Positions 24,209 to 40,858 of a stretch of DNA of 64,000 bases are shown here, piece after piece; within the stretch, counting starts at the first letter, position 1, and every line of letters starts with the position of its first letter. The DNA comes from a virus (lineage: Duplodnaviria; Caudoviricetes): positions 32,001 through 96,000 of IMG/VR virus record IMGVR_UViG_2773857766_000004; one strand, given 5' to 3'. The notes beneath the pieces were generated by a model. That model worked only from the letters and a program-made list of their open reading frames with translations. It had not been told where the DNA came from and ran no database searches. Both the position numbers and the translations under genes were made by a program.

Positions 24209-24246
24209 AGTTTCCCGCCCGGCAGCCACCTCGCCTAACCCTATGC
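24209..24246 (-). promoter_or_regulatory. Late promoter motif copy 2
   Basis: GCATAGGG-N24-GAAACT, ATG 7 nt downstream; TAG of the giant gene lies inside the motif. Confidence 0.75.
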
Positions 24247-27200
24247 TGGGGCCTGCCCTGCCTCGCGCGCTGCTTCGCGCATCTGCTGGCGCAGGGCCTT
24301 CGGCGCGGTGTCGGCGATCCGCTGCGTGCGGTCCTTGCCCATCTCGCGCACGCGCTTCCACACGTCCGGCATCTTCACCACGATCGGCTGCTCCGGATTG
24401 TTTCGGTTCCAGTCAGCCAGACGTTCGCGCGCCTCTGCAAGCGCCGCATCGTCCTTGCGGAAGAGCGCATCCGCCCACTGCGCCTTGATCTCGCTGCTGG
24501 TCTGCGTGTAGAAGGTCTTCGTGCGCTGCATGAAGCTGTTGGCCTCCTGCACCTCGGCCACGCTCTTGGGCTGGAAGCCCAGGAACTTCGCCCCCGCCTC
24601 GGCCAGCGTGGTGTCGATGACCTTGTAGCCCTTCTTGTCCTTATAGATTCCGGTCGCTGCCATGTCCACGCCCTTGACCGCGTTGCGCACCGCGGTCGGC
24701 GCCACCTCCAGCGCTGCGCCCCCCGCATCCCCTGTGAGTAGCTTGCGCCCCGCGGTGAAGCCCCGCGCAATCAAGTCCCCCGCCGGGCCGGCGACTTCCA
24801 GAAGATCGCGCTCGCGGTTCTGCTTCGACAAGAGCAGCCCGGTACCGGGGAGCAGGTTGCCCAGGCCCATACGGCCCGACACGTCCACTGGCGCACCAGG
24901 CAGACCGGAGACACCCTGCTCAACGAAATCGGCGATCTCCTTGCCCATCACGTCCGCCAGCAGTTGCTTGCGCCACTGCTTGCTGCTCAGGTTGTAGCCC
25001 ATCATCTGGGCCGCCCCGTCGATCAGATCCTCGGCGTCTTCCATGAAAGGCAGGCCGCCTGCGCCCGACATGAGCAGCAGCATGGCGATGGCCCAGCCCA
25101 CGGCCCGCTTTCCTTCCGGTCCGCCCTGAGTCCACATGCGGTGCATCAGCTCCAGGTAGGACACGCTGTAGGTCTTGAAAGTGTTGTGGGTGATGAACGG
25201 CATGCCGTTGCGTCGCGCCACCCATGTGCTGGTCCCTGGAACGATCGGGCACCAGACGCGGCCTGTGTAACGGACGCGCTCCGATTCCTTCACCGAGTAG
25301 CGTCCGTTTTCGGTTCTTTGCGATTCGCGGATCAGCACCTTCCGGCAGCTCGGACCATGCTTGCTCACTCGGAAACTCTTGCCCAGGATGGTCAGCGCCA
25401 TCTGGAAAGTCTCCAGCGTCTGCCCCGGGTTCTGGATGAGGCACCGCTGCCCGGCGGCCGACTCAGAGCCGTCCCCCTCGATCATGCGATCGACCAGCAA
25501 TTCAATCTGGGCCTTCGTCATCCGCATCAGCAATGCCGGGGTGAGCTGCTTACCGGGCAGCATCTTGCGCAACACTGCAGCGCTGCTTTTTTTGATGTTG
25601 AACCGGATGTGCGCGGCATTGCCGCCGACGTAGTTCCAGGTCGTTTCGGTGTATTCGAGCCCGGCTGCGTCGAGGTCAGCACGGATCAGGTCTGCTGTGC
25701 GCCCTTCGTTCTGATACAGCTTCAGCGCGCCGCCCCATTCCTCTCGCCCGCGGTTCTTCTTCGTGAACCACCCTTCCGTGACCACCCAACCCAGCACCCG
25801 CGCCTGGGCGTCGGTGATGGGCTCGCCGGTTGGCAGGTGATCGAACGGCGCGGCAGTGGGAATCTGAACCCGGTGAGACGCCGGGATGTCCTGCGCTTCG
25901 GCCACCCCCAACTCCCAATGCGTGGTCCCCCGCTGCGCCCCTTTGGTCCGCTTCCTTTTGTAATGCACCACTCGATGGTCTGGGGTCATGAGCATGTCCA
26001 GCGTCTTGGACTTCGCATGCACCATTTCACCATCGTGATCGAAGATGTGCACCGACGCCATCGGAGCCCAGATGAGCCGCTCTGTGGTCATATCGAACGA
26101 TGCGAGCATGTCGCCCGGCACCAGGTGGTCGGGGCCGACCCATCCGCGCTGCGTCAGCGCTTCCGTGGTGTCGTCCACACAGAAAAGCGCTCCCCCCACA
26201 GCCCCCCGCGCGAAGCGGGGTTTATTCGCTTTCGAGTACACGAACTGCGTCTCCAGCACCGCCTTGCGGGCGAAGTTGGAAGGCTCGGCCATGCCCTGCT
26301 CCTTCGCCATCCGATACGCGGCGATGAAGGTGCTGCGGCGGTTGAACTGTTCGGCCAGGGCGAAGGGCTGACCCCACGCCACCTTCACGCGCTCCCAGTT
26401 GTTGGCCACCGCGGCGCGTGCGTCGCCCACCTTCGTTCCGTCGCCCGTGCGGAGCGACCCAGTGCCGCGTGCCTGCGACATCAGCTGATGGATCTCCTGC
26501 GGGGACACCACACCATCCTCCTCCGCGGACTGCATCGCGGCAGCGAGGTCGGGCTCGTACTGAAAGCCCTTGCGGCTCATGTCCTTGAGGGCGCGCGCCA
26601 TCTGGGCGCCGGCCTTGCGCATGCCGCCAAACTGAGACAGCCACGGCATGGTGATCTGGAACGGTTGCATCATGTTCACGGCGGCGGACGCTACCGAGCC
26701 TCCCAGGTACTGGGCGAACAGCATGCCGCGCACGGCCTGGCCCTCCTCCTGGGGATTGGCGATGTAGTCGCGCAGCCCCATGGCCAGGTCTTTCAGCTCT
26801 CCCTGCTCCTTCGGGATGGCGTTGATTGCGCTCTCCATGGTGCCGGCGTTCAGTCCGCCAGCGCCCAGGCGGGCATTAGAGTACACGAAGCTCGCCAGCA
26901 CGCGGCCCACGTCCTCGCTGTACCCCGCGACCCCCTTGCGGTGGATCAGGCGCTTGAGCGCGCTGTGGTTGTTCTTGGCCAGTTGCAGGTAGGCCTGAAA
27001 TGCCTTGTCCTTCGGGTCGTCGCCCTTGCCGTCCAGCCCCAGCATGCTCCCGAACATTTCCAGGCTCTCGGGGGTGACGCCCGCGAACAGCTTGAATGCG
27101 TCCTGGCTCATGGTGCCCTGGGTGACGGTGGCGCCGGGGAACTGCTTTTCCATCTCGGCCTTCATCCGGTTGGAATCGGCCTTGGTCTCGAACATGCCGA

Positions 27201-30200
27201 AATATTGGCGATCGCCCGCGGCGTCCACCACATCCACCGTGTAGCGGCCGAAGCGCGACAGCGGGGCATAGCCCTCGTCCATCAGCTGCTGCGCCCTCTC
27301 CTGGGCTTTCACCACCGCGTTGTTCAGCTTCATCAGCCGTTCGGACCATTCGGGCCGATCCCGGGCGTCGTCCATCAGCGTGCGGGTCAGCAGCTCCACG
27401 GCATCGTCAAGGGTTTCCTGCGCCAGCACCGCGTCGCGCATGCCCGCGTACTCATCGCCCAGGCTGCGCAGCATGTCGGCGCGCGCCGTCATGTCGATGG
27501 AGCGGTCGATGGCGGCCCGGCCCTCTTGGTAGAGGCTCACCTGGTTCGCGTCGAGCCCGAACATGGTTTCCAGCTCCTTCTGGCTCCACACCACGCCGGC
27601 CTTGAGCACCCGGCTGTTGAAGCTGGTGTTCACGTTGGCCTCGTACATGCCCACGGGCAGGCCCTGCCAGGCGGTCAGGATCTTCGGGTCCAAGCGGCCG
27701 CCGCGCAGCAGCAGTTGGGCCTTCTGGTCGGCCGGCAGATTCTGGTACTTGGCCGTGAGGTCATCCAGCAGCACCGGGGTGCCGTCGATGTCCCGCGCCC
27801 ACATCAGCGTGCCCTCGAACAGCGGGCGCGCCACGGCCTTGTTGTCGGCCGCGGTGATCGGCTTCTTGGTCAGGTCGCGCCAGCTGTCCACGCGCGGCAG
27901 GAGGCGCGGGGCCATGTCGGCCGCGTCGTTGCCCAGCATGGACACGTCATCGATGAAGCGCTGGGCCGACTCGAACACCGGCTTGAACGCGGGCGCGCGC
28001 TCGGCCAGGTGGCGCATCGTGCCGATCGTCTTGTCCCAGAGCGACACCTTGCCGGGGTGGCTCATCGTCTGCGTGATCTGGTCCAGGGCCGAGTCCTTCA
28101 GCGCGGCGATGCGCTCGCGGCTGAACATCACATCCGGACCGGCCCCAGTTTGCGGCAGATCGGCCTCAGTTTTATAATTGGCGCGGAAGCCGGAAACTCG
28201 CTGTACCACCCCAGGCAATTGGAGCCTGGCCGTCGTGGCGAGTTGCCGGCTTTCTTTTTTGTTCGCAAACTGCAGCAGGCCGTCCCGGATCCAGCGCGTG
28301 AACGTGCGGTCCGCGTTGTCCTTCGGGTAGGCGCTGGGCACATAGACCACCTCGGCCCGGTTGCTGGCGCCGTTCGGATCGACGGCCACCACCACCGGGT
28401 TGCCGCGCACCACCAAGCTCGTCACCACCACCATCCGCCCGGGCTGGGTGTCCGACTTGAACACCATCACGGGATTCGACAGCAGCTCGCCCAGCCGCTC
28501 CAGATCCGCGCGCGGCACGCCGTGCTCGAAATGCATCTTGGCGAGGAGGTTGCGGTTCGTGACCACCGGCTTGCGTACCACGCCCAGCGCCTCGAGGGCC
28601 GCCGGCGTCTCGATGCCGAGCGGCACCTGGGCGCGCAGCGCGCGTTCGTCGTTGTTCAGGCCGGCGGTGATGGCCGCACGCACCTCGGCCGCGAACCCGG
28701 ACCGGGCTTCGTCCTGCGCCAGGCTGTACTGCATGGCTGCCGAGCCCATGCCGCGCTCGCGCGCCGCGGCGGCCCGTTCCACCCAGTTGCGCGCCGGCAG
28801 GATGTAGGCCTGGATGATGTCCGCGTCGCGCAGGCGCAGGCTCCCGAACCCGGGCACGTGCTCGCGCAGGAAGTTGCGGATGGCAGCGACGGCCCGCTGC
28901 ACGAAGGACAGCTGCGGATTCTTCTCGGCCATCTCCGCCAGCACCTCCTCCGCCGCCCGGGCCCGGCTGATGCGGTCCACGCCGCGCATGCCGTACTCGG
29001 CCATCTTGGCATCCACGTCAGCGCGGCGCATGGTGGCCACCTGGTTCAGGATCTTGTCCAACTCCGGACCGAAGAGCCCCCGCAGGCCGTGGTGGCCGGC
29101 CACCTCGTGGTACAGCACGCGCGCGGCATCCTCCGGCGTGGTCAGGCGCGATGCCATCAGGTACGCCTTGCCGCCGAAGTAGAACCCCTCGGGTGCACCA
29201 TGGGCGCCACCTGAGCGCTGGCGCGTGTCCGCGTCGCGCACGCGCTGGGGAATGATGGGGTCGTTCAGGTCGTAGGCGACCACCACCTCGGGGGCGTTCT
29301 GCCAAGCCGCCACGATCGGGCTGACCGTTGCGCGGATGGACTCTACGGCCTGCAGGCGGGCCTCGGGGGAGAACCCATCACCCTTCCCCATGATGCGCAG
29401 CAGTTCCGCCGCCATGCCCGCGCCCAGGTCGTCTTGGGCGTATCGACGAAACAACGGCTCGCTCTCAGCGGGGCCTCTCTTCCGCGCGTTGTCGCGGTTC
29501 CGCGCGGGCGCAGAGGGCTCATGGGAAGCAGCGGCCGGGGCCGGCGCGGGGTCCACCTCCATCCGGCCAGCCGGGCCCGTCGCATAGTTCACCTTGGAGG
29601 GTTCGGTCCCGTGGGTGCGTTCAACCGCGCCAGCCTTGTCCGCCCACGCGCCACTCCCGTCCTTCTGCACCTCGCGCACGGTGACGCTCCAGCGCCCATC
29701 CGCGTCCGCCGGCTGGTAGCTGACCACGCGATCGAACCCGCCGCCGTATCCCCGCACAACGTTGCCGGGGGCGAAGTAGGCGGCGCGGCGCTCCTCGGCC
29801 TCCCGCGCTTCGCGCACGGCCTTGCTCTCGCGCTTGGCCTTCGCGTCCTTCATCTTCTCGGGCACGGTCTTCGGCTTGGCTGCCGGGCTCGCTTCACCCG
29901 CCGCGGCGGGTGTTGCAGGCGCGGCGGCCTTTTCCGCCTTCGCGCGTTTCATGCGTTGCGGCACCGTCTCTGCCGCCGCTGGCGGCGCCGGGGGCGCAGC
30001 AGATGCGCTCTCCGAGGCCGGCAGCGCTGGCGCAGGTGCCGGCGCTGTTTCCGCATCCTTGTCGGGGGCTGGGCCGGCCTCCTCCGCCGCCGCCGTGGGC
30101 AACGCGTCGCCGGCAGCCGGGGCCGCGGCCGGCTTCACTGTCTTGGCAGGGTCGCGCACCCAGTCCTTGAATTCGTCCTGCGTCATCTGGGTGATCCCGC

Positions 30201-32814
30201 CCAGCCCCGTCCAGCCCTTCTCGTAGTTTCCGAGGTAGGTGCTGCGGGCCTCGGCCTCATCGGCCGCGCCCATCACCACCTTGTGCTCGTCGAATGAACC
30301 ATCCTTGTTCACCTGGTCCACCACGAACACCGGCAGGGCCGAGTCTTCGGCGCGATCGGTCATGAACACGTCCACGTGGTCCTTGTCCGCACCCTTGGTC
30401 CCCTTGATGTAGCCGTAATGGTTCTGCAGGGGAGGCCATTCAGGCCGGCGGCGCGTGCCGGCCGGATTCTCGATGCTGATGTCGTGACCGTTGATGCGAG
30501 CGTGGCCCTTCCGATAGTTGCCGGCCAGCTTCTGGGCCTCGGTCGGCTCGGGCAGGTCGTTGCTCAGGCTGGTGGCCGCCTCTTGCGCCGCGGCTTGCGC
30601 CACAGTGGGCGCAGATACCGGAGCAGCAGCTGCGCGCGCGGCACGGGCGCTGGTGCCAGCAGCCTTCGGCGGCACCCTCGCCTCGGCGGCAGCCGGCACC
30701 GGCTGGGCGTCCAGCGGAGGGAACGTGGTGCCGCGCGCCATGGCGACGGGTGCTGCAGGTGCTGGCGCCGGCGCGGCGGCGGCCTCCTGCACAGGCGCGA
30801 TCAGGTCGGCAATTTTGCGCTTCAGATCGCTGTTCAGGTTCTCCCACTTGGCGCCCGCCAGGTTCTTCTGCAGGACGGGCTTGAGGCCCTTCAGTTGCTC
30901 GGCAACCACCTGGCGCTGGACGGTAGGCAATCGGGTCCAGGTCTGGCCGGCGGCATCGATGCGCTGGGCGCGCTGGTCCTTGCTTTCCGGCGCTGCTTGC
31001 GCGCCTGCCGCTGTCTTTGCTTGCGCTCCAGCGTCCGCAGTCGTGGTGCCGCCATTGATCAGTGTCCCTTGCGCTGGTGCGCCAGCAGCGGCGACGGCCG
31101 GAGCCTGCGCTGCTGCTGGTGGTTGGGTGCTCGCTGGTTGGGCTTGGGGGCCATCGGTGGTTCCTTTCACGGGGGTGGATTGCTCGGCGGCGCGGGCAGC
31201 CTTGCGGCGCGACAGCTCCTGCGCCAGCTTGATGCGCACGTCGCGGCCCTGGGCGCCGCGGAAGACTTCCGACAGCTGCGCGTCGCTCCAGTTGGCCACG
31301 TCATCGGAACCGGGGATCTCGCCCGTTTCCGGATCCGCGCCAAGAGGTGACCGCGCCGGCTGCTCCTGTTTCTGGGCCTTGCCGCTCTTCTCGCCGGCCT
31401 CGGCCGCCTGTGCCAACGCGGCGGCCTGCTGCATCTGGTCGGAGACGCCGGTATCCACCGCCATGGCGGCGCCGGTCGAAAGCGGGCCGTCGGCGGGGTT
31501 GATCCCCATGCGCACGGAGCGCGGCACCTGGGCGCCCGTGGACTGGTAGATCTCGTCGTCCGGGCTCTCCACCGCGCGCGAGGCCTCCATGTCGGCCTGG
31601 CGCTGCGCCGCGGCGGCGGCGCGCTGCTCGGCCAGGGCGGCGGCCCCGTCCGGCGGTGCAGACTGGGGCCCGAGCACCTCGCCCTGTTCCTGCTCCTGCA
31701 GCATGCGTAGCTGCTCGGCGAAGGCCTCGCTCACCCGCTCAAGCCCGGGATTGCGCGCCGGGGCCTCTGCCGCCGGCTCGTCGCCAGCGGGCCGGGCCGC
31801 GGCGGGATCGCCCTCGCCGACCGCGGCCGCGCGCGGCCGCGCCGCGGCATGGTAGCCAGCAGCACCAGCCCCCATCGCCCCACCGGACAGGGCGCCCAGC
31901 ACGATGGCCGAGTCCACCTGGTCGTACCAGGGCTTGTCGAGCGCGACGTTCTGGAAGATCTGTTCGGCCACGGACTGCGGCAGTTCCTCCAGCAGGCCCT
32001 CGGCGATCGCGCCCTCGATCACGTGCCGCGGGATGCTCTTCACGGCCTGCTGCTGCAGCGGGTTCACGGCGGCGCCGGCCGCCTCGTCGGCGAACTGGCG
32101 AGCCATGCCGCTCCGCCCCTGCGCCAGCATCGTCTCGGCGTCGCCGATGCCCAGGCGCTGCGCGATCCGGCCGCCCACCGCACCGACGGCGCCCCCCACA
32201 GCCCCGGTCGCGGCGGCCAGCCCGGCCTGGCTCGGGGTCAGCAGCCCATCCGGGGTTTCCTGGCGGATCTGCTCGGCCTGCGAGCCGGCCATGGTCAGCC
32301 CTTCACCGGCAGCCCCGGCGAGCGCGGCGCCCTTGGCCCCCATCTGCCCCAGGCGCGTTGCAGCCAGGAGCCCCCGGCCAATCGCCCCGCCACCGATCAT
32401 GGTGGGGATCGACTCGCCAACGCTGGCGACCACCAGACTGGGGTTCTGCACGGCCGTGACCGCCTTGTCCACGATACCGTCGGCTTCTTGGAACTTCCGC
32501 TGGGCTTCCTTGGTGGCGTCGGAGTGCCAGTCGTTGACGATCTCACGCGTCTGCTTGGGACGGAACCCGACAGCGCCGCCTTCGTTCTCGAGGAACTTGC
32601 CCACGCGGCCACCGGTGAGGATGTCCGCGAGGCCCACCGCGGCCTCGGGAATCGCGATGGCGCCCTTCACTGCGGTAGCGGCGATGTCCTGGCCCCAGCC
32701 TTTGAGCCCGCGCTTCGGCTCTTCGCCATCCAATGCTCCAGAGAACGGCTGTAGCGTGCCGGACGATGGTGCATCAAGAACTCCATCGAAGGGCTTCAGA
32801 TTTTGGTCTTCCAT
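24241..32814 (-). CDS. Giant PLxRFG-domain polyvalent virion/ejection protein (2857 aa) containing an intein
   Basis: GYAPLSRFG; InPase-like domain (AGNYRKGH...HYGYIKGTKGADKDHVDVF); HEVAGH metallopeptidase-like motif; MuF-C/BECR-like segment. Confidence 0.9.
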   Translation of the reverse strand: MEDQNLKPFDGVLDAPSSGTLQPFSGALDGEEPKRGLKGWGQDIAATAVKGAIAIPEAAVGLADILTGGRVGKFLENEGGAVGFRPKQTREIVNDWHSDATKEAQRKFQEADGIVDKAVTAVQNPSLVVASVGESIPTMIGGGAIGRGLLAATRLGQMGAKGAALAGAAGEGLTMAGSQAEQIRQETPDGLLTPSQAGLAAATGAVGGAVGAVGGRIAQRLGIGDAETMLAQGRSGMARQFADEAAGAAVNPLQQQAVKSIPRHVIEGAIAEGLLEELPQSVAEQIFQNVALDKPWYDQVDSAIVLGALSGGAMGAGAAGYHAAARPRAAAVGEGDPAAARPAGDEPAAEAPARNPGLERVSEAFAEQLRMLQEQEQGEVLGPQSAPPDGAAALAEQRAAAAAQRQADMEASRAVESPDDEIYQSTGAQVPRSVRMGINPADGPLSTGAAMAVDTGVSDQMQQAAALAQAAEAGEKSGKAQKQEQPARSPLGADPETGEIPGSDDVANWSDAQLSEVFRGAQGRDVRIKLAQELSRRKAARAAEQSTPVKGTTDGPQAQPASTQPPAAAQAPAVAAAGAPAQGTLINGGTTTADAGAQAKTAAGAQAAPESKDQRAQRIDAAGQTWTRLPTVQRQVVAEQLKGLKPVLQKNLAGAKWENLNSDLKRKIADLIAPVQEAAAAPAPAPAAPVAMARGTTFPPLDAQPVPAAAEARVPPKAAGTSARAARAAAAPVSAPTVAQAAAQEAATSLSNDLPEPTEAQKLAGNYRKGHARINGHDISIENPAGTRRRPEWPPLQNHYGYIKGTKGADKDHVDVFMTDRAEDSALPVFVVDQVNKDGSFDEHKVVMGAADEAEARSTYLGNYEKGWTGLGGITQMTQDEFKDWVRDPAKTVKPAAAPAAGDALPTAAAEEAGPAPDKDAETAPAPAPALPASESASAAPPAPPAAAETVPQRMKRAKAEKAAAPATPAAAGEASPAAKPKTVPEKMKDAKAKRESKAVREAREAEERRAAYFAPGNVVRGYGGGFDRVVSYQPADADGRWSVTVREVQKDGSGAWADKAGAVERTHGTEPSKVNYATGPAGRMEVDPAPAPAAASHEPSAPARNRDNARKRGPAESEPLFRRYAQDDLGAGMAAELLRIMGKGDGFSPEARLQAVESIRATVSPIVAAWQNAPEVVVAYDLNDPIIPQRVRDADTRQRSGGAHGAPEGFYFGGKAYLMASRLTTPEDAARVLYHEVAGHHGLRGLFGPELDKILNQVATMRRADVDAKMAEYGMRGVDRISRARAAEEVLAEMAEKNPQLSFVQRAVAAIRNFLREHVPGFGSLRLRDADIIQAYILPARNWVERAAAARERGMGSAAMQYSLAQDEARSGFAAEVRAAITAGLNNDERALRAQVPLGIETPAALEALGVVRKPVVTNRNLLAKMHFEHGVPRADLERLGELLSNPVMVFKSDTQPGRMVVVTSLVVRGNPVVVAVDPNGASNRAEVVYVPSAYPKDNADRTFTRWIRDGLLQFANKKESRQLATTARLQLPGVVQRVSGFRANYKTEADLPQTGAGPDVMFSRERIAALKDSALDQITQTMSHPGKVSLWDKTIGTMRHLAERAPAFKPVFESAQRFIDDVSMLGNDAADMAPRLLPRVDSWRDLTKKPITAADNKAVARPLFEGTLMWARDIDGTPVLLDDLTAKYQNLPADQKAQLLLRGGRLDPKILTAWQGLPVGMYEANVNTSFNSRVLKAGVVWSQKELETMFGLDANQVSLYQEGRAAIDRSIDMTARADMLRSLGDEYAGMRDAVLAQETLDDAVELLTRTLMDDARDRPEWSERLMKLNNAVVKAQERAQQLMDEGYAPLSRFGRYTVDVVDAAGDRQYFGMFETKADSNRMKAEMEKQFPGATVTQGTMSQDAFKLFAGVTPESLEMFGSMLGLDGKGDDPKDKAFQAYLQLAKNNHSALKRLIHRKGVAGYSEDVGRVLASFVYSNARLGAGGLNAGTMESAINAIPKEQGELKDLAMGLRDYIANPQEEGQAVRGMLFAQYLGGSVASAAVNMMQPFQITMPWLSQFGGMRKAGAQMARALKDMSRKGFQYEPDLAAAMQSAEEDGVVSPQEIHQLMSQARGTGSLRTGDGTKVGDARAAVANNWERVKVAWGQPFALAEQFNRRSTFIAAYRMAKEQGMAEPSNFARKAVLETQFVYSKANKPRFARGAVGGALFCVDDTTEALTQRGWVGPDHLVPGDMLASFDMTTERLIWAPMASVHIFDHDGEMVHAKSKTLDMLMTPDHRVVHYKRKRTKGAQRGTTHWELGVAEAQDIPASHRVQIPTAAPFDHLPTGEPITDAQARVLGWVVTEGWFTKKNRGREEWGGALKLYQNEGRTADLIRADLDAAGLEYTETTWNYVGGNAAHIRFNIKKSSAAVLRKMLPGKQLTPALLMRMTKAQIELLVDRMIEGDGSESAAGQRCLIQNPGQTLETFQMALTILGKSFRVSKHGPSCRKVLIRESQRTENGRYSVKESERVRYTGRVWCPIVPGTSTWVARRNGMPFITHNTFKTYSVSYLELMHRMWTQGGPEGKRAVGWAIAMLLLMSGAGGLPFMEDAEDLIDGAAQMMGYNLSSKQWRKQLLADVMGKEIADFVEQGVSGLPGAPVDVSGRMGLGNLLPGTGLLLSKQNRERDLLEVAGPAGDLIARGFTAGRKLLTGDAGGAALEVAPTAVRNAVKGVDMAATGIYKDKKGYKVIDTTLAEAGAKFLGFQPKSVAEVQEANSFMQRTKTFYTQTSSEIKAQWADALFRKDDAALAEARERLADWNRNNPEQPIVVKMPDVWKRVREMGKDRTQRIADTAPKALRQQMREAAREAGQAPA
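25183..26181 (-). mobile_element. Intein with LAGLIDADG homing endonuclease (333 aa)
   Basis: Block A CVDDTTEALT, block B TPDH, LGWVVTEG and MIEGDG, block F VWC, terminal HN followed by +1 Thr. Confidence 0.93.
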
Positions 32815-32820
32815 CCCTCC

Positions 32821-32858
32821 ACTGTCCGCGCTACGGGGCGGAGTGGCGAGCCCTATAC
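32821..32858 (-). promoter_or_regulatory. Late promoter motif copy 3 (giant gene)
   Basis: GTATAGGG-N24-GACAGT, ATG 6 nt downstream. Confidence 0.75.
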
Positions 32859-32953
32859 GGTGCGAAGGAGCCGATACCGCTCATGTCGTGCTCCTGTAAC
32901 GGGAGCAGGTCGGCAGGCTTGGCACGGGGCCCAGGCGCAACATGTCGCACTTC

Positions 32954-32984
32954 TTGCAATGTCTTCGCGGACGTGTATATACAC
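32954..32984 (+). promoter_or_regulatory. TA promoter with palindromic operator
   Basis: TTGCAA (32954-32959) and perfect palindrome GTGTATATACAC (32973-32984) over the -10 region. Confidence 0.6.
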
Positions 32985-33015
32985 CGCGCGAAAATTAGCG
33001 GTACTATTGCATCCC

Positions 33016-33315
33016 ATGAAGAACTTAGAAATCTCTGGAGGCGTACTTGACAAATTGGCAAACAAGCATCAAGTAGAGAGGAAAGAGGTAGAGCAGTGCT
33101 TCAGGAACATCAATGGCCCGCTGCTCATCGATAACAGGGAAGACCACAGGACCAATCCTCCGACGCTGTGGTTTCTGAGCTATACCAACAAGGGCCGTTT
33201 ACTCAAGATCGCGTATATACAAAGAGGCTCAACGATCCATCTGAGGACGTGCTATGAGCCCAACCAAAACGAGATCAGCATTTACACGAGTCACACCAAA
33301 CGGAGAGTCAAATGA
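33016..33315 (+). CDS. BrnT-like ribonuclease toxin
   Basis: KL..KH.V...EVEQCF.N, REDH.T.P.T.WF, T..GRLLK, RTCYEP; AT-richer. Confidence 0.75.
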   Translation: MKNLEISGGVLDKLANKHQVERKEVEQCFRNINGPLLIDNREDHRTNPPTLWFLSYTNKGRLLKIAYIQRGSTIHLRTCYEPNQNEISIYTSHTKRRVK

Positions 33316-33635
33316 ACAAGTTCGCAGGCACTGATGAAGCATGGGAGGAGCGCCAACTGGGCGCTGACGCCGACCACGCAGAGGTGGCCGGTGCGGAGCA
33401 TATGGCAGCGCTGGACGAGGCGATGGGCATGCAGTCCATCTCGATCCGACTGCCCAAAGGAATGATCGACGCATACAAGCTGATCGGCGCTCACCATGGC
33501 GTCGGGTACCAGCCTCTGATGCGAGACATCCTGCAACGCTTCATCCCTGAAGGGTTGAAGGAAGTGCTGGACCACCACCAGCAAAAGGCCACACAAGCAG
33601 AAGGCCGCATTGAGGAGCTGCGGAAGGCGGCCTGA
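33312..33635 (+). CDS. BrnA/CopG-like RHH antitoxin
   Basis: ATGA overlap; WE...LG; ISIRLP...K..G...GVGYQPLMR.IL. Confidence 0.8.
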   Translation: MNKFAGTDEAWEERQLGADADHAEVAGAEHMAALDEAMGMQSISIRLPKGMIDAYKLIGAHHGVGYQPLMRDILQRFIPEGLKEVLDHHQQKATQAEGRIEELRKAA

Positions 33636-33653
33636 TGCCGTACCTTGCCCCAG

Positions 33654-33679
33654 AAGGCCCGCTTCGCGCGGGCCTTTTT
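33654..33679 (+). terminator. Intrinsic terminator after the TA pair
   Basis: AAGGCCCGC-TTCGC-GCGGGCCTT plus T tract. Confidence 0.8.
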
Positions 33680-33782
33680 CATGGTCGAATAACCGAACGG
33701 TAATTGCTCCACGATAACGGGGGCTGTGCCCGCACCTGCCTCAGTGCGCCGGCCTCTTACCCTCCCAGCATAGGAGGGCCCC

Positions 33783-33932
33783 ATGAACGAGAAGACCATC
33801 GCCACCCTCTTGCTTCCGGCCGCCTCCGTCGCCTGCATCCTGGACAAGGCCCCAGACGTGGCGAACGACACGGCAGCGCGGGCGGTCTACCATCTGAGCC
33901 AGCCGTCACGGCCCTGGCCTGCCAATTCCTAA
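33783..33932 (+). pseudogene. Truncated paralogue of the 36102-36452 moron
   Basis: ACILDKAPDVANDTAARAVYHL vs TCILDKAPGVANDTAALAVYQL, then premature stop. Confidence 0.8.
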
Positions 33933-33997
33933 AGTGCCCTCTGCACCTGCGCCCGCGAAGGGGAACGCCCTGCTACATTCCTGCGGGGAGGTACACC

Positions 33998-34082
33998 ATG
34001 GACGGCTTCATCAACAACATCTGGACCGGCCGCGCCGGGCTTGCGAAGACCTACTGGGGCTATGGGTTCCTGGGCGGGCTGG
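33998..34082 (+). pseudogene. 5' fragment of a membrane-protein moron
   Basis: TGCTACATT -10, GGGGAGGT SD, MDGFINNIWTGRAGLAKTYWGYGFLGG, then runs into the convergent ant gene. Confidence 0.55.
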
Positions 34083-34104
34083 AGAGCCCCGTACCGACCC
34101 TTGA

Positions 34105-35055
34105 TCAAGCCCGCCGAGGCGCCGGCAGAATCTCCATAAAGCCTGGTTCCTGCATCCCAGCCACAGGGCAGCGGCCACGCAGGGCTCGCAGAATGCCAAC
34201 CAGATCCGCGGCTTGGTCGCTCATGGGGTGAAACAGCATACCAAGTCGGTCGAGGCGGGTCGTGATGGCTTCCTGCTGCGCCCTTGACACAGGAGATCGC
34301 AAGCCGCACTTCGACAGCACGGCGTTGACCAGCGGCATGAAGACTTCCACCGGCGTGCCGTTTGGCCCTTCCACCTGCCTCACCATTCGGGCAACCTGCT
34401 CGTTCAGCGCACCAGAGGACGGCGCTTCGTCCACCAGATCCCATTCGGCCGTGTGCCGCGCTACGATAGACAGCGCCTCAGTGAACTCGCTGCGCGGAAT
34501 CTGCCTGTACGACACATGGAAGTGTGCCTTGAGCTTGCTCCACCCCTTCACCATGGCCGCAGCCCGCTTGTGCTTCGGAAGCCGGTCAACCGCCGTGGTC
34601 AGCATCAGCCGCAGGGCTTCCGCCTCCTCGCCCGTCAGCACGTCGCCCGGGCTGACCGAGTACAGCGCCCGCGGGTTGACAGCGATGCCCTCGTTCCAGT
34701 AGTGCCAGAGAGCGTCATCGCACTCGTTCTGGTACTGAATGACGCGGGCGCGGACTTGGGGGCTCTTGACCTTGCCCGGCTCGATGGTGGTCAGCCATGC
34801 CGCCGTCTTCCGCACAGGCAAGCAAGTCATGGCCTGCTCGCCACCGGCCGAAGGTATTGTCAAGTTGACAATACCCCAGCGCGACTCGTTGGCCGCCACC
34901 TTGCGGAACTGGCTCCCCCAGTCCAGCCCCATGGCCGCGACGATCGGCTTCATGGGTGTGTACGGCTGCCCGTTGTTCTCCACGACATACAGGTCAGCGC
35001 CATGGAAGGGGACGGTGATTGCGCGGCCGGCCGCGACTTGCGTAGAATTCGACAT
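34105..35055 (-). CDS. ant: Phage antirepressor (P22 Ant N-terminal domain)
   Basis: ITVPFHG..L...PYTPMKPIV..MGLDW..Q; YQNECDDALW.YW. Confidence 0.9.
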   Translation of the reverse strand: MSNSTQVAAGRAITVPFHGADLYVVENNGQPYTPMKPIVAAMGLDWGSQFRKVAANESRWGIVNLTIPSAGGEQAMTCLPVRKTAAWLTTIEPGKVKSPQVRARVIQYQNECDDALWHYWNEGIAVNPRALYSVSPGDVLTGEEAEALRLMLTTAVDRLPKHKRAAAMVKGWSKLKAHFHVSYRQIPRSEFTEALSIVARHTAEWDLVDEAPSSGALNEQVARMVRQVEGPNGTPVEVFMPLVNAVLSKCGLRSPVSRAQQEAITTRLDRLGMLFHPMSDQAADLVGILRALRGRCPVAGMQEPGFMEILPAPRRA

Positions 35056-35131
35056 GTTGAATCCTTCTGTCAGAGGTTGGGTTTGGACACTCGACGCCCC
35101 GGTTGCTGCAACTTCCGGGGCGTTTCCTTTT

Positions 35132-35311
35132 TCAGGCCGTCTTGGCATGCTGGGCCTCCTGGGCCTCCTGGGCCTCTTTGGCCTGTGCCAAAAACTTGTT
35201 GACCAGCCAGTTCATTGAGCGGTCCTGCTCCTTCGCCTGGGCCTTGATCCATTCATGGACCTGGGTTTGCAGCCGGACCTTCAGTTGCTCACCCGCTTGA
35301 GTTGATTTCAT
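35132..35311 (-). CDS. arc: Arc-like RHH repressor (59 aa; not in ORF track)
   Basis: AAGGGAG SD; MKSTQAGEQLKVRLQTQVHEWIKAQAKEQDRSMNWLVNKFL... Confidence 0.85.
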   Translation of the reverse strand: MKSTQAGEQLKVRLQTQVHEWIKAQAKEQDRSMNWLVNKFLAQAKEAQEAQEAQHAKTA

Positions 35312-35326
35312 GGCTCCCTTTCATGA

Positions 35327-35391
35327 ACCTATTAGGTCCACGCAGCCAATGTACCTTTTAGGTCCATTGTCGTCAACACCTATTTGGCCCA
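35327..35391. promoter_or_regulatory. Divergent Pant/Pmnt control region with three operators
   Basis: Minus strand TTGACG-17-TACATT (35376-35348); repeats ACCTATTAGGTCCA, ACCTTTTAGGTCCA, ACCTATTTGGCCCA at 35327, 35353, 35378. Confidence 0.8.
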
Positions 35392-35404
35392 TCATCCGCA
35401 CCCG

Positions 35405-35941
35405 ATGAAGCAGACCGACCCGCAGTACAAACTCCGAATCCCTCCGGACCTGAAGGAGCAAATCGAGACCGCCGCAAAGGAGTCAGGCCGCTCCATGAAC
35501 GCCGAAATCGTGGCGCGTCTGGAGGATTCATTTGCTGCGCGAAACGACGGAACCGTGTTGGCAGCCATGGACGTGGTGCGCAGGGAGTGGGAGCTAAGTG
35601 CGACCGTCAACCGGCTTGAATTCACGCTCCGTGGCTACCAGGATCAGTTGAGCTTTTTGCGTCAACGGATGGCGCGGGAACGGAGGCTGCTGAAGAACCT
35701 TCAGGAGGTTCGCGACCAAGCCCGGCAACGAGGTGACCTCGCCCAGGTTGAGCACATCCAGGCCGAAATCGATGAGAACGAGGAGTGGATGAAGGCTTCA
35801 GAGGTCGAGTTGAAGCAACTCGAGGACGTCATCACTGCAATGAAACGGCAGCTGGTGGACGTCATGCATGCAGCGGTGAAAGCTGGAGATGAACAGCTGA
35901 AAGCCGTGACGCCGGTAGATCCTGCGCCGCCACGCAAGTAG
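35405..35941 (+). CDS. Arc/Mnt-family repressor with a coiled-coil tail
   Basis: DPQYKLRIPPDLKEQIETAAKESGRSMNAEIVARLEDSF. Confidence 0.9.
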   Translation: MKQTDPQYKLRIPPDLKEQIETAAKESGRSMNAEIVARLEDSFAARNDGTVLAAMDVVRREWELSATVNRLEFTLRGYQDQLSFLRQRMARERRLLKNLQEVRDQARQRGDLAQVEHIQAEIDENEEWMKASEVELKQLEDVITAMKRQLVDVMHAAVKAGDEQLKAVTPVDPAPPRK

Positions 35942-36101
35942 CGTCGCGCGGCGCTGAGCTGCGTGGTCATGGCGACCATGAAGCCGCCCGCCAGCCACCC
36001 AGGGTCTGGCTCGGGCACGCCCATCGAACTGTTCTGACCGCTCCAGACATTCCAGGTGCGCACTGGTAAGAACGGAGCGCCGCTCTGCTACATTGCCCTC
36101 C

Positions 36102-36452
36102 ATGCGCCGAGTCATCGTCCTAACCGCCCTACTCTGCACCCAGTCGGCGTGGGCGTCCAACATGGCCACCTGCATCTTGGACAAGGCCCCAGGCGTCGCA
36201 AACGACACGGCCGCCCTGGCGGTCTACCAACTCTGCCAGTCGGAGAACCCTGGGGGCTTCGATGCTGTGCCCCAAGGCTCGGCCCGCGGCCTATTTGGGT
36301 TCAAGTCTGGCGCCGAGTGCACGTCCAAGAAGGCCGCGGCCACCCGAAGCAACAGAGCCGCCGTCTTCGTTGGTGTTGCTTGCCGGAAGCTGTATGACGA
36401 TGCACCTGAAGGCTTCAGGCCATTCAGCGGCAAGCTCGACCACGAACGCTAG
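36102..36452 (+). CDS. Secreted four-cysteine moron protein (VF_A0006-like)
   Basis: Signal peptide; CILDK.PG..ND..A.AVYQLC, EC..KK, ACRKLYD; TGCTACATT 7 nt before ATG. Confidence 0.82.
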   Translation: MRRVIVLTALLCTQSAWASNMATCILDKAPGVANDTAALAVYQLCQSENPGGFDAVPQGSARGLFGFKSGAECTSKKAAATRSNRAAVFVGVACRKLYDDAPEGFRPFSGKLDHER

Positions 36453-36455
36453 ACC

Positions 36456-38681
36456 TTAAGAAGCAACGAAACGCTTACCACTTGCGTCTTCGTAAACGGG
36501 CTTTCCTCCAGAGGTTCCGACCAGTTTCTTCATACCCGCAGGCAGCGCAGATCCCTGCCCCACATCCACCCGCTGCACGTCCCCTGTCGCTTGGTTGTAC
36601 CGGAGCACACTCCCCTCGCTGGTAGAGCCATCGGCGTTCTTGACCGCGGGCGTGACCTGTACGCGCCAGTCGTTCTGGCCCTGGCCAGCCAGCGCCCGCA
36701 GTGCCCGCTGTGCCTGCGCCTTGGCGGCCTCTGATGCGGTGGGATCGACAAGCACGCCGCGCAGTTGCTCCTGCTGGGCCGCGATGCGGTTGGCGTAGCC
36801 CTGGGCCTCCACCTGGCTGTCCACCGACCGCCGTTGCGTGGCGGCCTGCTGCGCCGCAATGCCAGTCCGCTGCGCTTCGACAGCGGCTCGGGCGCCGGCA
36901 CGTTGGGTCTCACCGGCCTGCTGCATTTCTTCGCGCGCCAGTGCCGCGTTCTGGCGCATGGCTTCGGTGTCCATGCCCGGCTGTGCCGCGCGGGCCGCGA
37001 GATCGGCATTGGTCATGGCCGCCGCGGTGGCTGCCTCTGGCGACATGCCCTTGTGCTGGTCCCACCGGCCGCCGTTGTTCATGATGCTGGAGGCCGATAC
37101 CTGGGCGTTGCGAAGGTCGTTGCGGGCCTGCCAGTCGTTGCCCGAGTGACGGGCTACCGGCGCCGAGAATGCACCAGGCTGGAAGCCCCGAACCGGTGAG
37201 TCCTCCGGCTGGGGTCGCATGCCGGGCGCGAAGCCGCGCACCATGCTTTCTGCAGCAGCATCTGCCGCGGCGGTGGGCCGGCCGGAGAACCCGCGGGGGA
37301 AGTTCATGCCCGTCGCTTGGTCGCTGAACTGCCCACGGCCGTGCTCGAAAACGCCTGGGCGCACCTCGGCGGCCGAGCCCGTTGCGGCTTGCGCAGTGGC
37401 CGGCTGAGCGCCAGCCTGCTGCATTACGCTGCGGCGGCTCTCCTCCGCCATGCCCGGCGCGAAGCCGCGTGCTGCAGGAGATGCTGTCGGCGCTGCTGCG
37501 GGAGCATCTGCAGCGGCGGGGGCAGCCGCGGGAGCGGGCGCGGCGTCGACCGTCCCGAACAGCCCCGAGCCGAAGCCTCGTGCCGCGCCGATGATCGGCT
37601 CGGAAACCTTGTCCGCCAGCTCCAGCCCGTACATGCCCAGCCCCTGCACCGCGGTGCGCGCAGCAGTGCCGGCGGCCTGGGCGTAGTTGCCGGAGCTCAC
37701 CTGGTCTTTCAGCTCCTGCGCCCGGTCCTGCATGTACAGCTCGGACGGCCCGGCCGCACGCTGGTCGGACTGCCCGCTCGGGCGCGGCGAGAAGCCCCGA
37801 GTCTGGGGTTCGGCCTCCGGCGCGGCGCCGACGTAGGGGCTGCGGCCCGCGCTCGGGCTGCCCTGCGGGTAGATGTTGGAGGGGGAGATTTGCTTGCGCC
37901 GCTCTTCGTCCTTGACCACGCCGCCATCGGCGAAGCTCGGACGCGTCGCGTACGTGGTCGCAGGCGGCAGGCCGGGCGGACGCTGGAGTGCAGGCGCGGG
38001 GAAGCCCACGGCCGCCGGCGCGGCGCTCACAGGCGTGGTGCTGCCCAGCGGGGTTGGCGCGGTGCCGGGGGGCGCCGTGTTGGCGGGCTGGCTCATGCTG
38101 GCCAGCTTGCTTTGCGCAGCATCGCGGTCGGCGCTGGGCATGATGGAGCTGGCCGTCACCTCCAGGCTGCGCTGGGCGTTGCGCTCCGCCCACCCCATCG
38201 GTGCCCCGGGCGCCGCTGCGGCGGCTGCAGGCGCTGGGGCAGCCGGCTGGGCTGCCGTCGCGGCGGCGCTCTGCGGCGGGTCGCTGACCAGCCCCCCGTT
38301 GGCGAAGAAGAAGCGCGGCTCCGGCGGCGCCGGCGGCCGTGCTCCCGGGGAAAAGCCGCGCACCGGCGCGTGGGTCGCATCCTTCATCTGGTCCAGCGCC
38401 TGCACGCCGATGGCATGCACCTGCTCCGGCGGCAGCTTGAACTCGCCGTTGCTCAGGTTCACGGCCACCTTCCGACCGGGCTGGAAGCCGCGCGCGCCCA
38501 TGGTCTCGAGGTTCTGAGCCCCCACCTGTTGGGTGCTGTCGGCCGGCATGATGTAGGTGCCCGGCGCAACGGCGTCCTGCACGTCATCGGAGGTGCCGGT
38601 GCCAGGCCCGCGCACCACGCCGCCGCCGGCATATCCACTGGTCTTGGCGGCACGGTGCGCCGCCGGTTGAAAGCCTCGCAT
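36456..38681 (-). CDS. Low-complexity internal virion/ejection protein
   Basis: GGAG SD, ATG 38681; GPGTGTSD domain; repeated RGFxP and (F/Y)AxGG motifs. Confidence 0.78.
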   Translation of the reverse strand: MRGFQPAAHRAAKTSGYAGGGVVRGPGTGTSDDVQDAVAPGTYIMPADSTQQVGAQNLETMGARGFQPGRKVAVNLSNGEFKLPPEQVHAIGVQALDQMKDATHAPVRGFSPGARPPAPPEPRFFFANGGLVSDPPQSAAATAAQPAAPAPAAAAAAPGAPMGWAERNAQRSLEVTASSIMPSADRDAAQSKLASMSQPANTAPPGTAPTPLGSTTPVSAAPAAVGFPAPALQRPPGLPPATTYATRPSFADGGVVKDEERRKQISPSNIYPQGSPSAGRSPYVGAAPEAEPQTRGFSPRPSGQSDQRAAGPSELYMQDRAQELKDQVSSGNYAQAAGTAARTAVQGLGMYGLELADKVSEPIIGAARGFGSGLFGTVDAAPAPAAAPAAADAPAAAPTASPAARGFAPGMAEESRRSVMQQAGAQPATAQAATGSAAEVRPGVFEHGRGQFSDQATGMNFPRGFSGRPTAAADAAAESMVRGFAPGMRPQPEDSPVRGFQPGAFSAPVARHSGNDWQARNDLRNAQVSASSIMNNGGRWDQHKGMSPEAATAAAMTNADLAARAAQPGMDTEAMRQNAALAREEMQQAGETQRAGARAAVEAQRTGIAAQQAATQRRSVDSQVEAQGYANRIAAQQEQLRGVLVDPTASEAAKAQAQRALRALAGQGQNDWRVQVTPAVKNADGSTSEGSVLRYNQATGDVQRVDVGQGSALPAGMKKLVGTSGGKPVYEDASGKRFVAS

Positions 38682-38708
38682 GGAGCCTCCTGTGATGCAG
38701 ATGTGCCG

Positions 38709-38746
38709 ATTCTTCGGCCCAGCCGCACGCCTGCAAAGCCCTATAC
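38709..38746 (-). promoter_or_regulatory. Late promoter motif copy 4
   Basis: GTATAGGG-N24-AAGAAT, then GGAGG SD and ATG 38681. Confidence 0.75.
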
Positions 38747-38799
38747 GCGGGCGTTGAGCCGGCTGCCTGAGCTCAGCAGGGTGGTCCAACACCTTTCCG

Positions 38800-38944
38800 T
38801 CAACCGCCGGCACCGCAGTTGTAGTTGTGGCCGGTCGTTTTGGTGGTGTTCCAGGTTTCTCCCTGGCTACCTTGCCCAGGAATTCCGGCCGACACGTGGA
38901 TAGCCGGCATTGCGTCGGCCGCGAGCTGGGCGGCGCACTGCGCG
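38800..38944 (-). pseudogene. Orphan duplicate of the C-terminus of the 38945-40858 gene
   Basis: AQCAAQLAADAMPAIHVSAGIPGQGS vs SQAASTLAAGAMAGISLGSSVSGGSG. Confidence 0.65.
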
Positions 38945-40858
38945 TCACCCATTGGTCGTTGAACCGGGTGTTGGAATCTGCATCGACTCCGAGTAGTTTG
39001 CGGACGCACTGACACCCGATCCGCCGCTCACGCTGGAGCCGAGAGAGATACCAGCCATCGCGCCGGCCGCCAACGTGGAAGCGGCCTGGCTTGCGGACTT
39101 CAGGGCTTCGAGTTGGATCGACGCCACACGGATCATCTGTTCCATGTCCGCGACGTACTTCCGGATTTCCACCTCGTAGGCTGCGATCGAGGTCCGCATG
39201 TTGGCCTCCTGGGCCTGCAACTGCAGGCCGATCGCGGCGCTCTCGGCGCCTACCTTGGCCGTGTACCGTGCCGTGTTGGCCCGGTGCGCCTCGGCATTGG
39301 CCTGGATGGCGGCGCTCTGCTGCTGGATGAGCGTTTTGTCCTTGTCGAGGTTCGCCACGAAGGCCTGCACGCGCAGCTGCGCCTGCGAAATCTCGGCCGC
39401 CTGGTTCTTGATGCTGATGTCGGCCTTCGCGGCTTGGCCGGAGACATACGCGCTGTAGGCGCGCGCCTGGGCGTCGATGAGGGAGGCCTTGGCGGTCTCG
39501 CCCTTGACGCGACTTTCGTAGGCGTCGAAGCGCACCTTGTCGGCCTGCAGCAGCTCGGCGTGCGCCTGCACCTCGGCCTTGAAAATTTCCAAGCGCGTGC
39601 GCTGTTGCTCGGATTCGAGCTGCGCGCCCTGCATCTGCGACTTGTAGATTTCCAGGTCCAGCTGCAGCGCCTGCACCTGGGCCTGGTAGGTGCGCACTCG
39701 CTGTTCGTTGACCTGGCCCTTTGCCAGCTCCCCGTCCAGCTCGGCGCGGTACACCTGGATCCGTGCAAGCTGGGCGTCCAGGCGTGCGCGGAACACGGTG
39801 GCCTCTGTTGCATAGGCCGACTGCTTCGCGTTGAAGATGGCGATCTGTGCGTTCAGCAGCGCCAGCTCGCTGTCCAGTTGGATCTTGGCGGCCTCGAAGG
39901 CCCGGCCCGCCACGGCGGACCAGATCCCCACCAGCACCTGTTCTGCGGCAATGGCCTGGGTGCAGGCGAACCGCACATTCTCGATCTGGGCATCCGTGAC
40001 CTTGATGAGAACGTCCCGGCCCAGCGTCTGCTTGCGCAGCATGGCCTCGGACCGGATGGCGTCGATGCGGTTGACCATCATGCCCGGCGGCATGGTGAAC
40101 CCGCGCGAGGAGAACTCCGTTGCGGCGGCCGATATGTCCCGGCTCACGGCGATGTCTTCACGCGATGCGGCGCGCTCCCAGAGGGCTTTTTCCACCGCAG
40201 GCGGAAGCCCCGTGCCGCCAGCCCACATCCGGCGCAACTGGGCCAACTCCTCCTCCAGGATGGTGACCTTGTAGGGCACCTCCCGCCACTGGAGCACGGT
40301 CGATACGTGGCTGCCCTGGAACTCGGGCGACTGGGCTGTGAATTCCGGCAGCGTCGGGAAATCGAAATGCGGAATCACGATGTTGTCCAGCGAGGGGAGC
40401 AGCGGTTTCTCCAGCCGAGGCGCCTCTGGCGGCACCACCTCCCGTATCGCAGGCGCCGTCGGCGCGGCCCCGTAGTCGCGCCAGTCCGGTGCCTCCGGAA
40501 TCTGGATGGCCGCGAACCCAGGATTGAAGCCTTCGACCTCGATCTGCTGCACCGGGGCGATTGCGCCCACGCCCACGTCCGAACGGTTCACGGGCGTCAC
40601 GACGCCGAAGCTGTCGCGGCCCAGGTCCGGCAGCTCCAGATTGCCGGTGACGCTGGCCTGCAGATCCGGGACATCCGGAGCGCTGCCGGACATCAGCAGT
40701 GCAGGCGTGAACTTGCCCATCTCTTCGATCGTCTGCCGGGCCGCGTCCTGGGCCTTGACTGCCCGCTCGATCGCACTGCCCTGCCTCTCCAGCACGGTGT
40801 CGCGGATCTGCTTCGCCGCGTCGTAGGCCTCGGCAAATGCCCCTGTTGCTTCTCCCAT
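38945..40858 (-). CDS. Coiled-coil virion (probable ejection/tail) protein
   Basis: AGAAGGAG SD; GGTGLP..VE.ALW.R, RGF.MPPG, long Ala/Gln heptads. Confidence 0.8.
   Translation of the reverse strand: MGEATGAFAEAYDAAKQIRDTVLERQGSAIERAVKAQDAARQTIEEMGKFTPALLMSGSAPDVPDLQASVTGNLELPDLGRDSFGVVTPVNRSDVGVGAIAPVQQIEVEGFNPGFAAIQIPEAPDWRDYGAAPTAPAIREVVPPEAPRLEKPLLPSLDNIVIPHFDFPTLPEFTAQSPEFQGSHVSTVLQWREVPYKVTILEEELAQLRRMWAGGTGLPPAVEKALWERAASREDIAVSRDISAAATEFSSRGFTMPPGMMVNRIDAIRSEAMLRKQTLGRDVLIKVTDAQIENVRFACTQAIAAEQVLVGIWSAVAGRAFEAAKIQLDSELALLNAQIAIFNAKQSAYATEATVFRARLDAQLARIQVYRAELDGELAKGQVNEQRVRTYQAQVQALQLDLEIYKSQMQGAQLESEQQRTRLEIFKAEVQAHAELLQADKVRFDAYESRVKGETAKASLIDAQARAYSAYVSGQAAKADISIKNQAAEISQAQLRVQAFVANLDKDKTLIQQQSAAIQANAEAHRANTARYTAKVGAESAAIGLQLQAQEANMRTSIAAYEVEIRKYVADMEQMIRVASIQLEALKSASQAASTLAAGAMAGISLGSSVSGGSGVSASANYSESMQIPTPGSTTNG

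Follow-up and report, generated by a model that had tools for sequence, protein, structure and literature searches.

The TP-J34 Ltp and HK97 gp15 proteins, envelope exclusion proteins directed at tape-measure or entry proteins, are prophage-encoded, face outward on the cytoplasmic membrane and stop DNA entry through interference with an injected phage protein; to our knowledge neither involves peptide mimicry or swappable motif cassettes, and we know of no earlier case of superinfection exclusion by mimicry of the invader's own peptide. Colicins and pyocins carry disordered N-terminal translocation domains whose TolB or TonB boxes, sometimes present in several copies, engage periplasmic host proteins. 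Here we describe a locus in a 64,000-nucleotide stretch of DNA from a virus of the Caudoviricetes (IMG/VR record IMGVR_UViG_2773857766_000004, positions 32,001 to 96,000; hereafter the window), in which a small, probably secreted four-cysteine protein, the 'moron', carries in its C-terminal tail a short motif that also occurs twice among the first residues (the leader) of a giant, probably injected protein. An earlier reading of the sequence, referred to below as the original prediction, had proposed that the motif is a docking signal and the moron a periplasmic decoy that blocks related phages. Like Ltp and gp15, the moron is prophage-encoded and is proposed to act in the envelope on an injected protein, but those are lipoprotein or membrane proteins that bind through folded domains, whereas the moron has no lipobox as read from its sequence. 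The phage leaders differ from colicins and pyocins in that the latter are toxins, and the cognate immunity proteins work by binding to the toxic domain, with no mimicry of the box.

In phage P22, SieA is expressed from the prophage and blocks related phages at the ejection-protein step; PMC10883804 describes it as an inner-membrane protein with three sequence types that show no difference in specificity, and escape from it maps to the ejection proteins, with alterations in the C-terminal portions of gp16 and gp20. The original prediction had drawn on this parallel, which stands for position, the moron gene also lying among or beside ejection-protein genes and the immI region, and for the step proposed to be blocked. 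It goes no further, as the moron is a soluble secreted four-Cys protein and not a polytopic membrane protein, and its tail copies the N-terminus of its target in discrete specificity classes. The effector HxsA of the HXS system resembles the moron in being a small protein with short repeats that stops phage DNA entry from the periplasm, where the moron is also proposed to act; according to PMC13128918, HXS is a host system of broad spectrum that needs radical S-adenosylmethionine (rSAM) maturation and is proposed to act by electrostatic binding to DNA, and HxsA, unlike the moron, mimics no phage protein. Among open-access papers and bioRxiv preprints, our searches found none that describes the motifs, VF_A0006 or a decoy protein for exclusion.

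Tail and leader motifs co-vary across phages

The original prediction held that the pattern PF.G.LD is common to the start of the giant protein, in two copies, and to the tail of the moron, and precisely these three sites were recovered. In a six-frame translation of all 64,000 bases the pattern occurs exactly three times, at 32773-32793 and 32728-32748 on the minus strand and at 36420-36440 on the plus strand, and no further good copy was found in the whole 116-kb record. The minus-strand copies lie in the leader of the giant protein (24241..32814, minus strand; 2857 amino acids (aa), starting MEDQNLKPFDGVLDAPSSGTLQPFSGALDGEE), copy 1 as LKPFDGVLD at residues 6-14 (32773..32799) and copy 2 as LQPFSGALD at residues 21-29 (32728..32754). 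The plus-strand copy lies in the variable C-terminal tail DAPEGFRPFSGKLDHER of the moron (36399..36449), as the mimic motif FRPFSGKLD at 36414-36440. Codons differ between the copies (Ser TCT vs AGC, Leu TTG vs CTC, Pro CCG vs CCA), and the similarity is therefore a peptide repeat and not a DNA repeat; the same differences rule out a DNA repeat, an inversion site or a (recent) gene conversion as its origin.

A first independent case is Pseudomonas phage LKA5, where an unannotated moron homologue ends KKPWEEYQNLQKDNQP (...LYDEEKKPWEEYQNLQKDNQP) and the giant protein starts MADTSKPWEEFASQQPVTGGEKPWEEFGG, another motif with the same tail-leader relation. Our survey covered 122 loci, with 39 from genomes, 80 from viral contigs and one each from LKA5, Atpa001 and the window; the genome and viral-contig loci were taken with 10 kb on each side. 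A tail could be read in 116 of these; in 78 it was accompanied by a twin leader, and these 78 correspond to 61 non-redundant loci. Fifty-seven of the 61 matched by class regular expression and L110 matched by eye, while loci missed by the expressions added one match (L094) and one mismatch (L017). The tail class thus equals the leader class of the phage's own giant protein in 59 of 63 non-redundant loci, as counted with class patterns that were written after the data had been seen and with leaders found by those patterns; the score-based tests given below are independent of the patterns. Fifteen classes show the match: PWxx(Y/F), NFFDQFD, PFxGxLD, (T/I)(F/S)YE(D/E)A(F/Y), NPFxDPxYG, DWE(R/K)G, DLFDEF, (Q/E)IDxFL, WWK(K/Q), FDPSTA, D(R/Q)FGG, WLDxxST, WxQFELV, GLFDDL and LAxEFGL, with peptides such as KPWEEF, NFFDQFD, DLFDEFGI, TFSYEDAFG, DWERG and WWKK as examples.

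Among 36 unique pairs, the best 7-mer BLOSUM score averaged 32.2 for cognate and 15.6 for non-cognate combinations, and 0 of 20,000 shuffles reached the observed sum in a permutation test. A tail-first six-frame search of each locus, blind to the giant protein, led to the start of a giant opposite-strand open reading frame (ORF), even where that ORF had an N-domain of another family, and the reverse search from each leader led to the moron tail only. The co-variation of moron tails with the repeats of the cognate giant protein that follows from the original prediction is therefore seen, in 59 of 63 loci, across 15 classes and in none of the permutations. Where tail and leader residues are identical, 149 of 289 codons are identical as well, against 133 expected from pooled codon use, and this near-random codon identity argues that the match is kept by selection on the peptide. 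The tail-leader mimicry is real and under selection.

The arrangement of the motifs is regular. Giant proteins with the window-type N-domain hold two copies of the tail's class in their first ~40 residues; counted from the Met, leader copy 1 begins at a median distance of 4 aa, and the spacing between the copies has a median of 17 aa (range 11-31). The moron and the giant gene lie on opposite strands in 59 of 61 loci, and the DNA coding for the tail is a median of 2.6 kb from that coding for the leader.

The moron, the giant protein and their surroundings

The moron gene (36102..36452, plus strand) was assigned to PF28034 (VF_A0006) through its homologues. The ORF listing gives 36093..36452 on the plus strand, a protein of 119 aa that begins at a TTG at 36093 and ends ...LYDDAPEGFRPFSGKLDHER (...ACRKLYDDAPEGFRPFSGKLDHER). 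The ATG at 36102, which gives 116 aa, is the more likely start because a 91%-identical homologue (P0003) starts there. Read by eye, the N-terminus MRRVIVLTALLCTQSAWA, followed by SN, has the layout of a Sec signal peptide (36102..36155; n-region, h-region and AxA), predicted to be cut after AWA, and among the homologues an AxA site ahead of (A/G)N(Y/F)ATC is conserved, with a signal-peptide-like N-terminus throughout. No lipobox was recognised by eye, the Cys in ...LLCTQSAWA/SN lying inside the h-region without A, S or G at -1, and the homologues read AWA/AN with no Cys at +1. The single N-terminal hydrophobic stretch with its AxA site, ahead of a remainder modelled as soluble and helical, is not that of a polytopic inner-membrane protein. 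Four cysteines (C27, C48, C76 and C97) are invariant in 78 homologues, as in the four-Cys small secreted domain of PF28034. The ORF, the reading of its sequence and the invariant cysteines thus bear out the earlier description of an opposite-strand, signal-peptide, four-Cys protein.

A protein search gave 86 homologues, which share a conserved core that ends AC(R/K)(K/R)LYDE and is followed by a hypervariable tail in discrete, unrelated classes. The AlphaFold2 model of the window moron (pLDDT 85.4) has a compact helical core and a low-confidence, disordered tail. Comparison of the fold with known structures returned 0 matches in the PDB with Foldseek, a best Z of 3.3 with VIA-align wide and nothing at E <4 in BFVD. 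Nearly all of the 86 homologues come with a precomputed PF28034.1 match, and 64-94% of the members of the nearest Atlas clusters carry it. The window moron itself scored 32 bits against NCBIfam NF041602, under the 65-bit cut-off, and had no match in our Pfam scan, whose model set seemingly lacks PF28034; nor did that scan match it at E <= 0.01 to TrbM, the NCBI name of homologue P0043. PF28034 ('VF_A0006 four-cysteine protein') is a Pfam family of unknown function, and a profile search (E <= 0.001) placed 499 clusters at 50% identity in it, with many long forms that bear extra domains. In several Pseudomonas-type tails (L030, L031, L118, P0145, P0157, P0171, P0182 and P0184) the PWxxY motif comes with two additional flanking Cys, e.g. 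C..NPGPWCNY, which suggests a disulfide-constrained loop version of the decoy.

A truncated second PF28034 copy lies at 33783..33932 on the plus strand and comprises the signal peptide and first helix without a tail, with a 74-bp stretch 85% identical to 36169-36242. Downstream of it is a remnant that resembles the N-terminus of homologue P0013.

The giant protein contains Pfam InPase (aa 759-886, E 7.7e-44) and MuF_C (aa 1428-1524, E 2.5e-21) domains and also matches PHROG giant-protein families, one of them DarB-like. Several unrelated effector domains are thus joined in one giant polypeptide that is encoded among virion and ejection-type genes, and its homologues in phages 8P, Epa33 and H66 were named 'structural protein' by their depositors (names as deposited). 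In the available part of PMC5512222, the prediction for polyvalent proteins with InPase and MuF domains is packaging into the head followed by injection, and the same part describes neither an N-terminal twin motif nor a matching secreted protein. The giant protein resembles these polyvalent proteins in its InPase and MuF_C domains and its virion-gene context, and it is probably likewise packaged in the virion and injected. Its first 37 residues were modelled as coil with low confidence (pLDDT 47.7). Residues 2212-2544 (25183-26181, minus strand) form a 333-aa insertion that is missing in 14 homologous giant proteins; the insertion has Cys as its first residue after ...GGALF, ends ...ITHN before a T and contains LAGLIDADG-like strings. 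The insertion resembles an intein that contains a homing endonuclease, and no Pfam or PDB sequence match was found for it.

The moron gene is antisense to the virion/late genes and lies between the gene for the 36456-38681 protein and the giant gene, ~3.3 kb from the latter. Beyond it follow virion genes of ejection-protein type (PHROG), and between it and the giant gene are an immI-like module, a BrnT/BrnA-like pair and the truncated second copy. The adjoining gene at 36456..38681 (minus strand; phrog_11341) encodes an ejection-cluster virion protein with nine RGFxPG-type repeats, which are scattered in low-complexity sequence as a short-linear-motif array; repeats of the form GF(S/T)P occur in the LKA5 homologue (058). 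The immI-like module (34105..35941) is inserted between the giant gene and the ejection-type genes and consists of an Ant gene (34105-35148, minus strand), an Arc-like gene (35132-35311, minus strand) and an Arc/Mnt-like gene (35384-35941, plus strand), with support from Pfam P22_AR_N (E 3.3e-38), Pfam Arc (E 1e-13) and the PHROG anti-repressor Ant (E 6.4e-72). Its relative position agrees with that of immI in the P22 gene order. The toxin-antitoxin-like pair of BrnT-like and CopG(BrnA)-like genes (33022-33635, plus strand) has clear matches to PHROG 18652 and 17810, and both of its Pfam matches are below the cut-offs; in the RNA-library run X14 a 321-base contig over 33031-33351 was far deeper than its neighbours, although contig depth cannot rank genes. 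The relatives in the phage collection are F116-like Pseudomonas phages of the genus Hollowayvirus, and megablast against that collection gave no DNA-level relatives of 30000-42000.

A periplasmic decoy as the favoured explanation

Our favoured reading, which beyond the peptide match is inferred, is that the moron works in the periplasm as a peptide decoy and shuts out phages whose class matches its own, and we give this reading a probability slightly above one half (about 0.55). The moron, as a Sec-exported, disulfide-stabilised helical PF28034 protein, would reside in the periplasm of the lysogen and display the leader motif of the giant protein on its flexible tail. When a phage of the same class injects, the tail would compete with the incoming twin leader for the place in the envelope where the leader docks; the giant protein would then fail to be delivered, productive DNA entry would fail along with it, and the outcome would be class-specific superinfection exclusion. 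Tails with two or three stacked motifs would widen the excluded range, and phages could escape by replacing their leader. This reading adds to the tail-leader pattern the predicted signal for export, the antisense orientation of the gene and its immI-like surroundings.

A decoy directed against other phages is preferred to a role in the phage's own assembly first because of foreign-class motifs in the tails. Several tails stack two to three classes of which only one is that of the phage's own giant protein, such as the L038 tail with DWERG and NPFADPNYG and the L035 tail with DRFGG, FDPSTA and GPWRKY; further multi-motif tails with foreign classes are those of L108, L114 and L117 and of homologues P0093, P0098, P0139, P0157 and P0171. 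Some leaders also stack two classes (L013, L077 and L089). A second reason is the exchange of a leader alone. L035 and L036, which come from different assemblies, are identical over 11 kb save for giant-protein residues 1 to ~105 and a trivial indel in a PAA repeat, and the leader is of the PWxxY type in one and of the ISYEDAF type in the other, with the moron unchanged, which looks like escape by leader replacement. In genomes G001 and G002, a near-identical leader is joined to different N-domains. The moron gene is also antisense to the late genes and adjoins the immI-like module, which again favours a decoy over a role in assembly.

Co-resident prophages differ in class in the pairs L004/L038, L027/L030, L065/L108, L064/L110 and L046/L112, but with ~15 classes most random pairs differ, and we do not take these differences as evidence. 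In a further co-resident pair, L059/L085, both tails are of the WWKK class; the L059 locus contains no giant-protein start and hence no leader.

A number of results weigh against the decoy, the first set of which concerns its docking partner. The original prediction had named the 36456-38681 protein as the partner, and this part of the proposal was not supported, even as the tail-leader co-variation passed. The protein does not co-vary with class: it is common to L072 (PWxxY) and L062 (DWERG) but not to L072 and L070, which are both PWxxY, and it is identical in L035 and L036 despite their different leaders. In an all-against-all clustering of 4866 ORFs from the 61 loci, no ORF family within +-10 kb tracked class (area under the curve (AUC) 0.33-0.74, with 0.57 for the moron core and 0.56 for the giant protein), and no cluster was class-specific among these loci. 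Comparison of five whole proviruses gave no convincing partner candidate either. For most of its length the PWxxY genome G001 matches the DWERG genome G003 at >= 90% identity, and the sole stretch common to G001 and the second PWxxY genome but to none of the others contains lysis genes, at 77% identity. Because no phage-encoded candidate was found, a component of the host envelope is the more likely target of the leader, and as judged from these sequence comparisons either a host component or direct pairing of leader and tail is more likely than a lock encoded by the phage.

The remaining adverse points concern the moron itself. Tail and leader classes are mismatched in four of the 63 loci (L036, L066, L091 and L017). 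In phage 8P (L139; giant start 11887 onward) the twin leader is KPWESF and the usual moron position is without a PF28034 gene, and the Hollowayvirus BR228a (L140; giant start 11920 onward) has a further twin class (TWGENDKIV / DFGANDEVV) and, at the moron position of LKA5, a 63-aa two-helix membrane ORF (9439-9630). The leader can therefore function without a moron, and the moron is dispensable or optional for the phage; such optional presence fits the status of a moron and proves nothing about exclusion. A loop in the 63-aa ORF of BR228a that by eye resembles its own leader scored too low to count. Long members of the PF28034 family hold the motif in a linker ahead of further domains and not at the C-terminus, and the strong conservation of the moron core suggests a role beyond the display of a peptide, such as a binding function.

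The original prediction had given the moron gene an extended -10, and TGcTACATT can indeed be read at 36086-36094, 7 bases ahead of the ATG, but a consensus promoter scan gave no promoter on that strand. The sole site from the scan was on the minus strand (35376-35348), and shuffled sequence also yields one. Fifteen RNA-labelled runs contain at least half of the words of 32600-38000, and in the four that we examined the contigs, some of which evenly span 6-20 kb and may derive from DNA, show neither transcription nor silence of any gene; stretches without contig cover are uninformative. One contig in run X14 spans 36187-36645.

Alternative explanations and implications

The alternative that survives best, though we consider it unlikely, is direct capture of the incoming leader. 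The twin motifs would normally pair, among themselves or across subunits, into an oligomer, and the tail would pair homotypically with the incoming leader motifs and cap the oligomer as a dominant-negative peptide, with no third partner. This would explain the absence of a class-specific partner from the phage genomes as well as the two copies in every leader and the many arbitrary classes. However, most classes are strongly acidic (DLFDEFGI, NFFDQFD, KPWEEF), and self-association of such 6-9-residue peptides would be improbable without cofactors. Similar classes (DLFDEF, GLFDDL, LAxEFGL) still best match their own cognate, which fits a defined pocket over loose hydrophobic pairing.

Also unlikely, and placed second, is a shared address tag, by which both proteins would dock on the same envelope machine, the moron for instance to be positioned where phages enter or assemble, while the moron core does another job, with exclusion a side effect at most. 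The highly conserved core with its invariant residues, the size of the family (499 clusters) with its many extra-domain architectures, and the location of the motif in a linker in the long forms are all in keeping with such a tag. A foreign-class motif in a tail, on the other hand, has no obvious use as a self address, and the moron is missing from related phages that keep the leader.

The foreign-class motifs, in pointing to other phages as targets, also speak against self-protection, which we regard as improbable. Here the phage's own leader would be harmful to the lysogen or sensed by it, for example on contact with particles from induced siblings, and the tail would neutralise the leader without any block of infection. 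The same mimicry logic and the same co-variation would be expected, and self-protection is hard to separate from exclusion. A resemblance without function, through chance, low complexity or co-inheritance of short motifs in genes that are linked at 0.4-9 kb, is scarcely credible, since linkage cannot make non-homologous proteins alike, each of the 15 classes would need its own origin of resemblance, none of the 20,000 permutations reached the observed sum, codon identity is near random and the motif is found nowhere else in the window or the loci.

The favoured decoy reading can be extended to a wider and more tentative view, possible but in our estimate short of probable, in which this large group of temperate phages of Pseudomonas and Betaproteobacteria enters by means of an exchangeable peptide 'key' code that prophages counter with an array of decoys. 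For each of the at least 15 twin leader motifs there would be a separate site in the host envelope at which it docks, and the PF28034 scaffold would bear one to three decoy peptides as a cassette-like specificity array at the protein level. Escape would occur through replacement of a ~40-residue leader, as in L035/L036, or through stacking of two key classes, as in L013 and L077. If true, this would be a new, programmable form of virus-against-virus immunity through short-linear-motif mimicry, and the leaders would be ready-made probes for host entry factors.

The twin leaders mark a previously unnoticed functional element at the start of giant, probably injected phage proteins, and they offer a handle on how giant proteins and DNA cross the envelope, an open question for short-tailed phages. 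The decoy reading, if true, would explain what PF28034, a functionally uncharacterised Pfam family with ~500 clusters at 50% identity, does, and it would allow the phages that a given prophage excludes to be told from sequence alone, by the rule that the tail class equals the leader class. Such a rule would be of practical use when Pseudomonas phages are selected or engineered to get past resident F116-like prophages.

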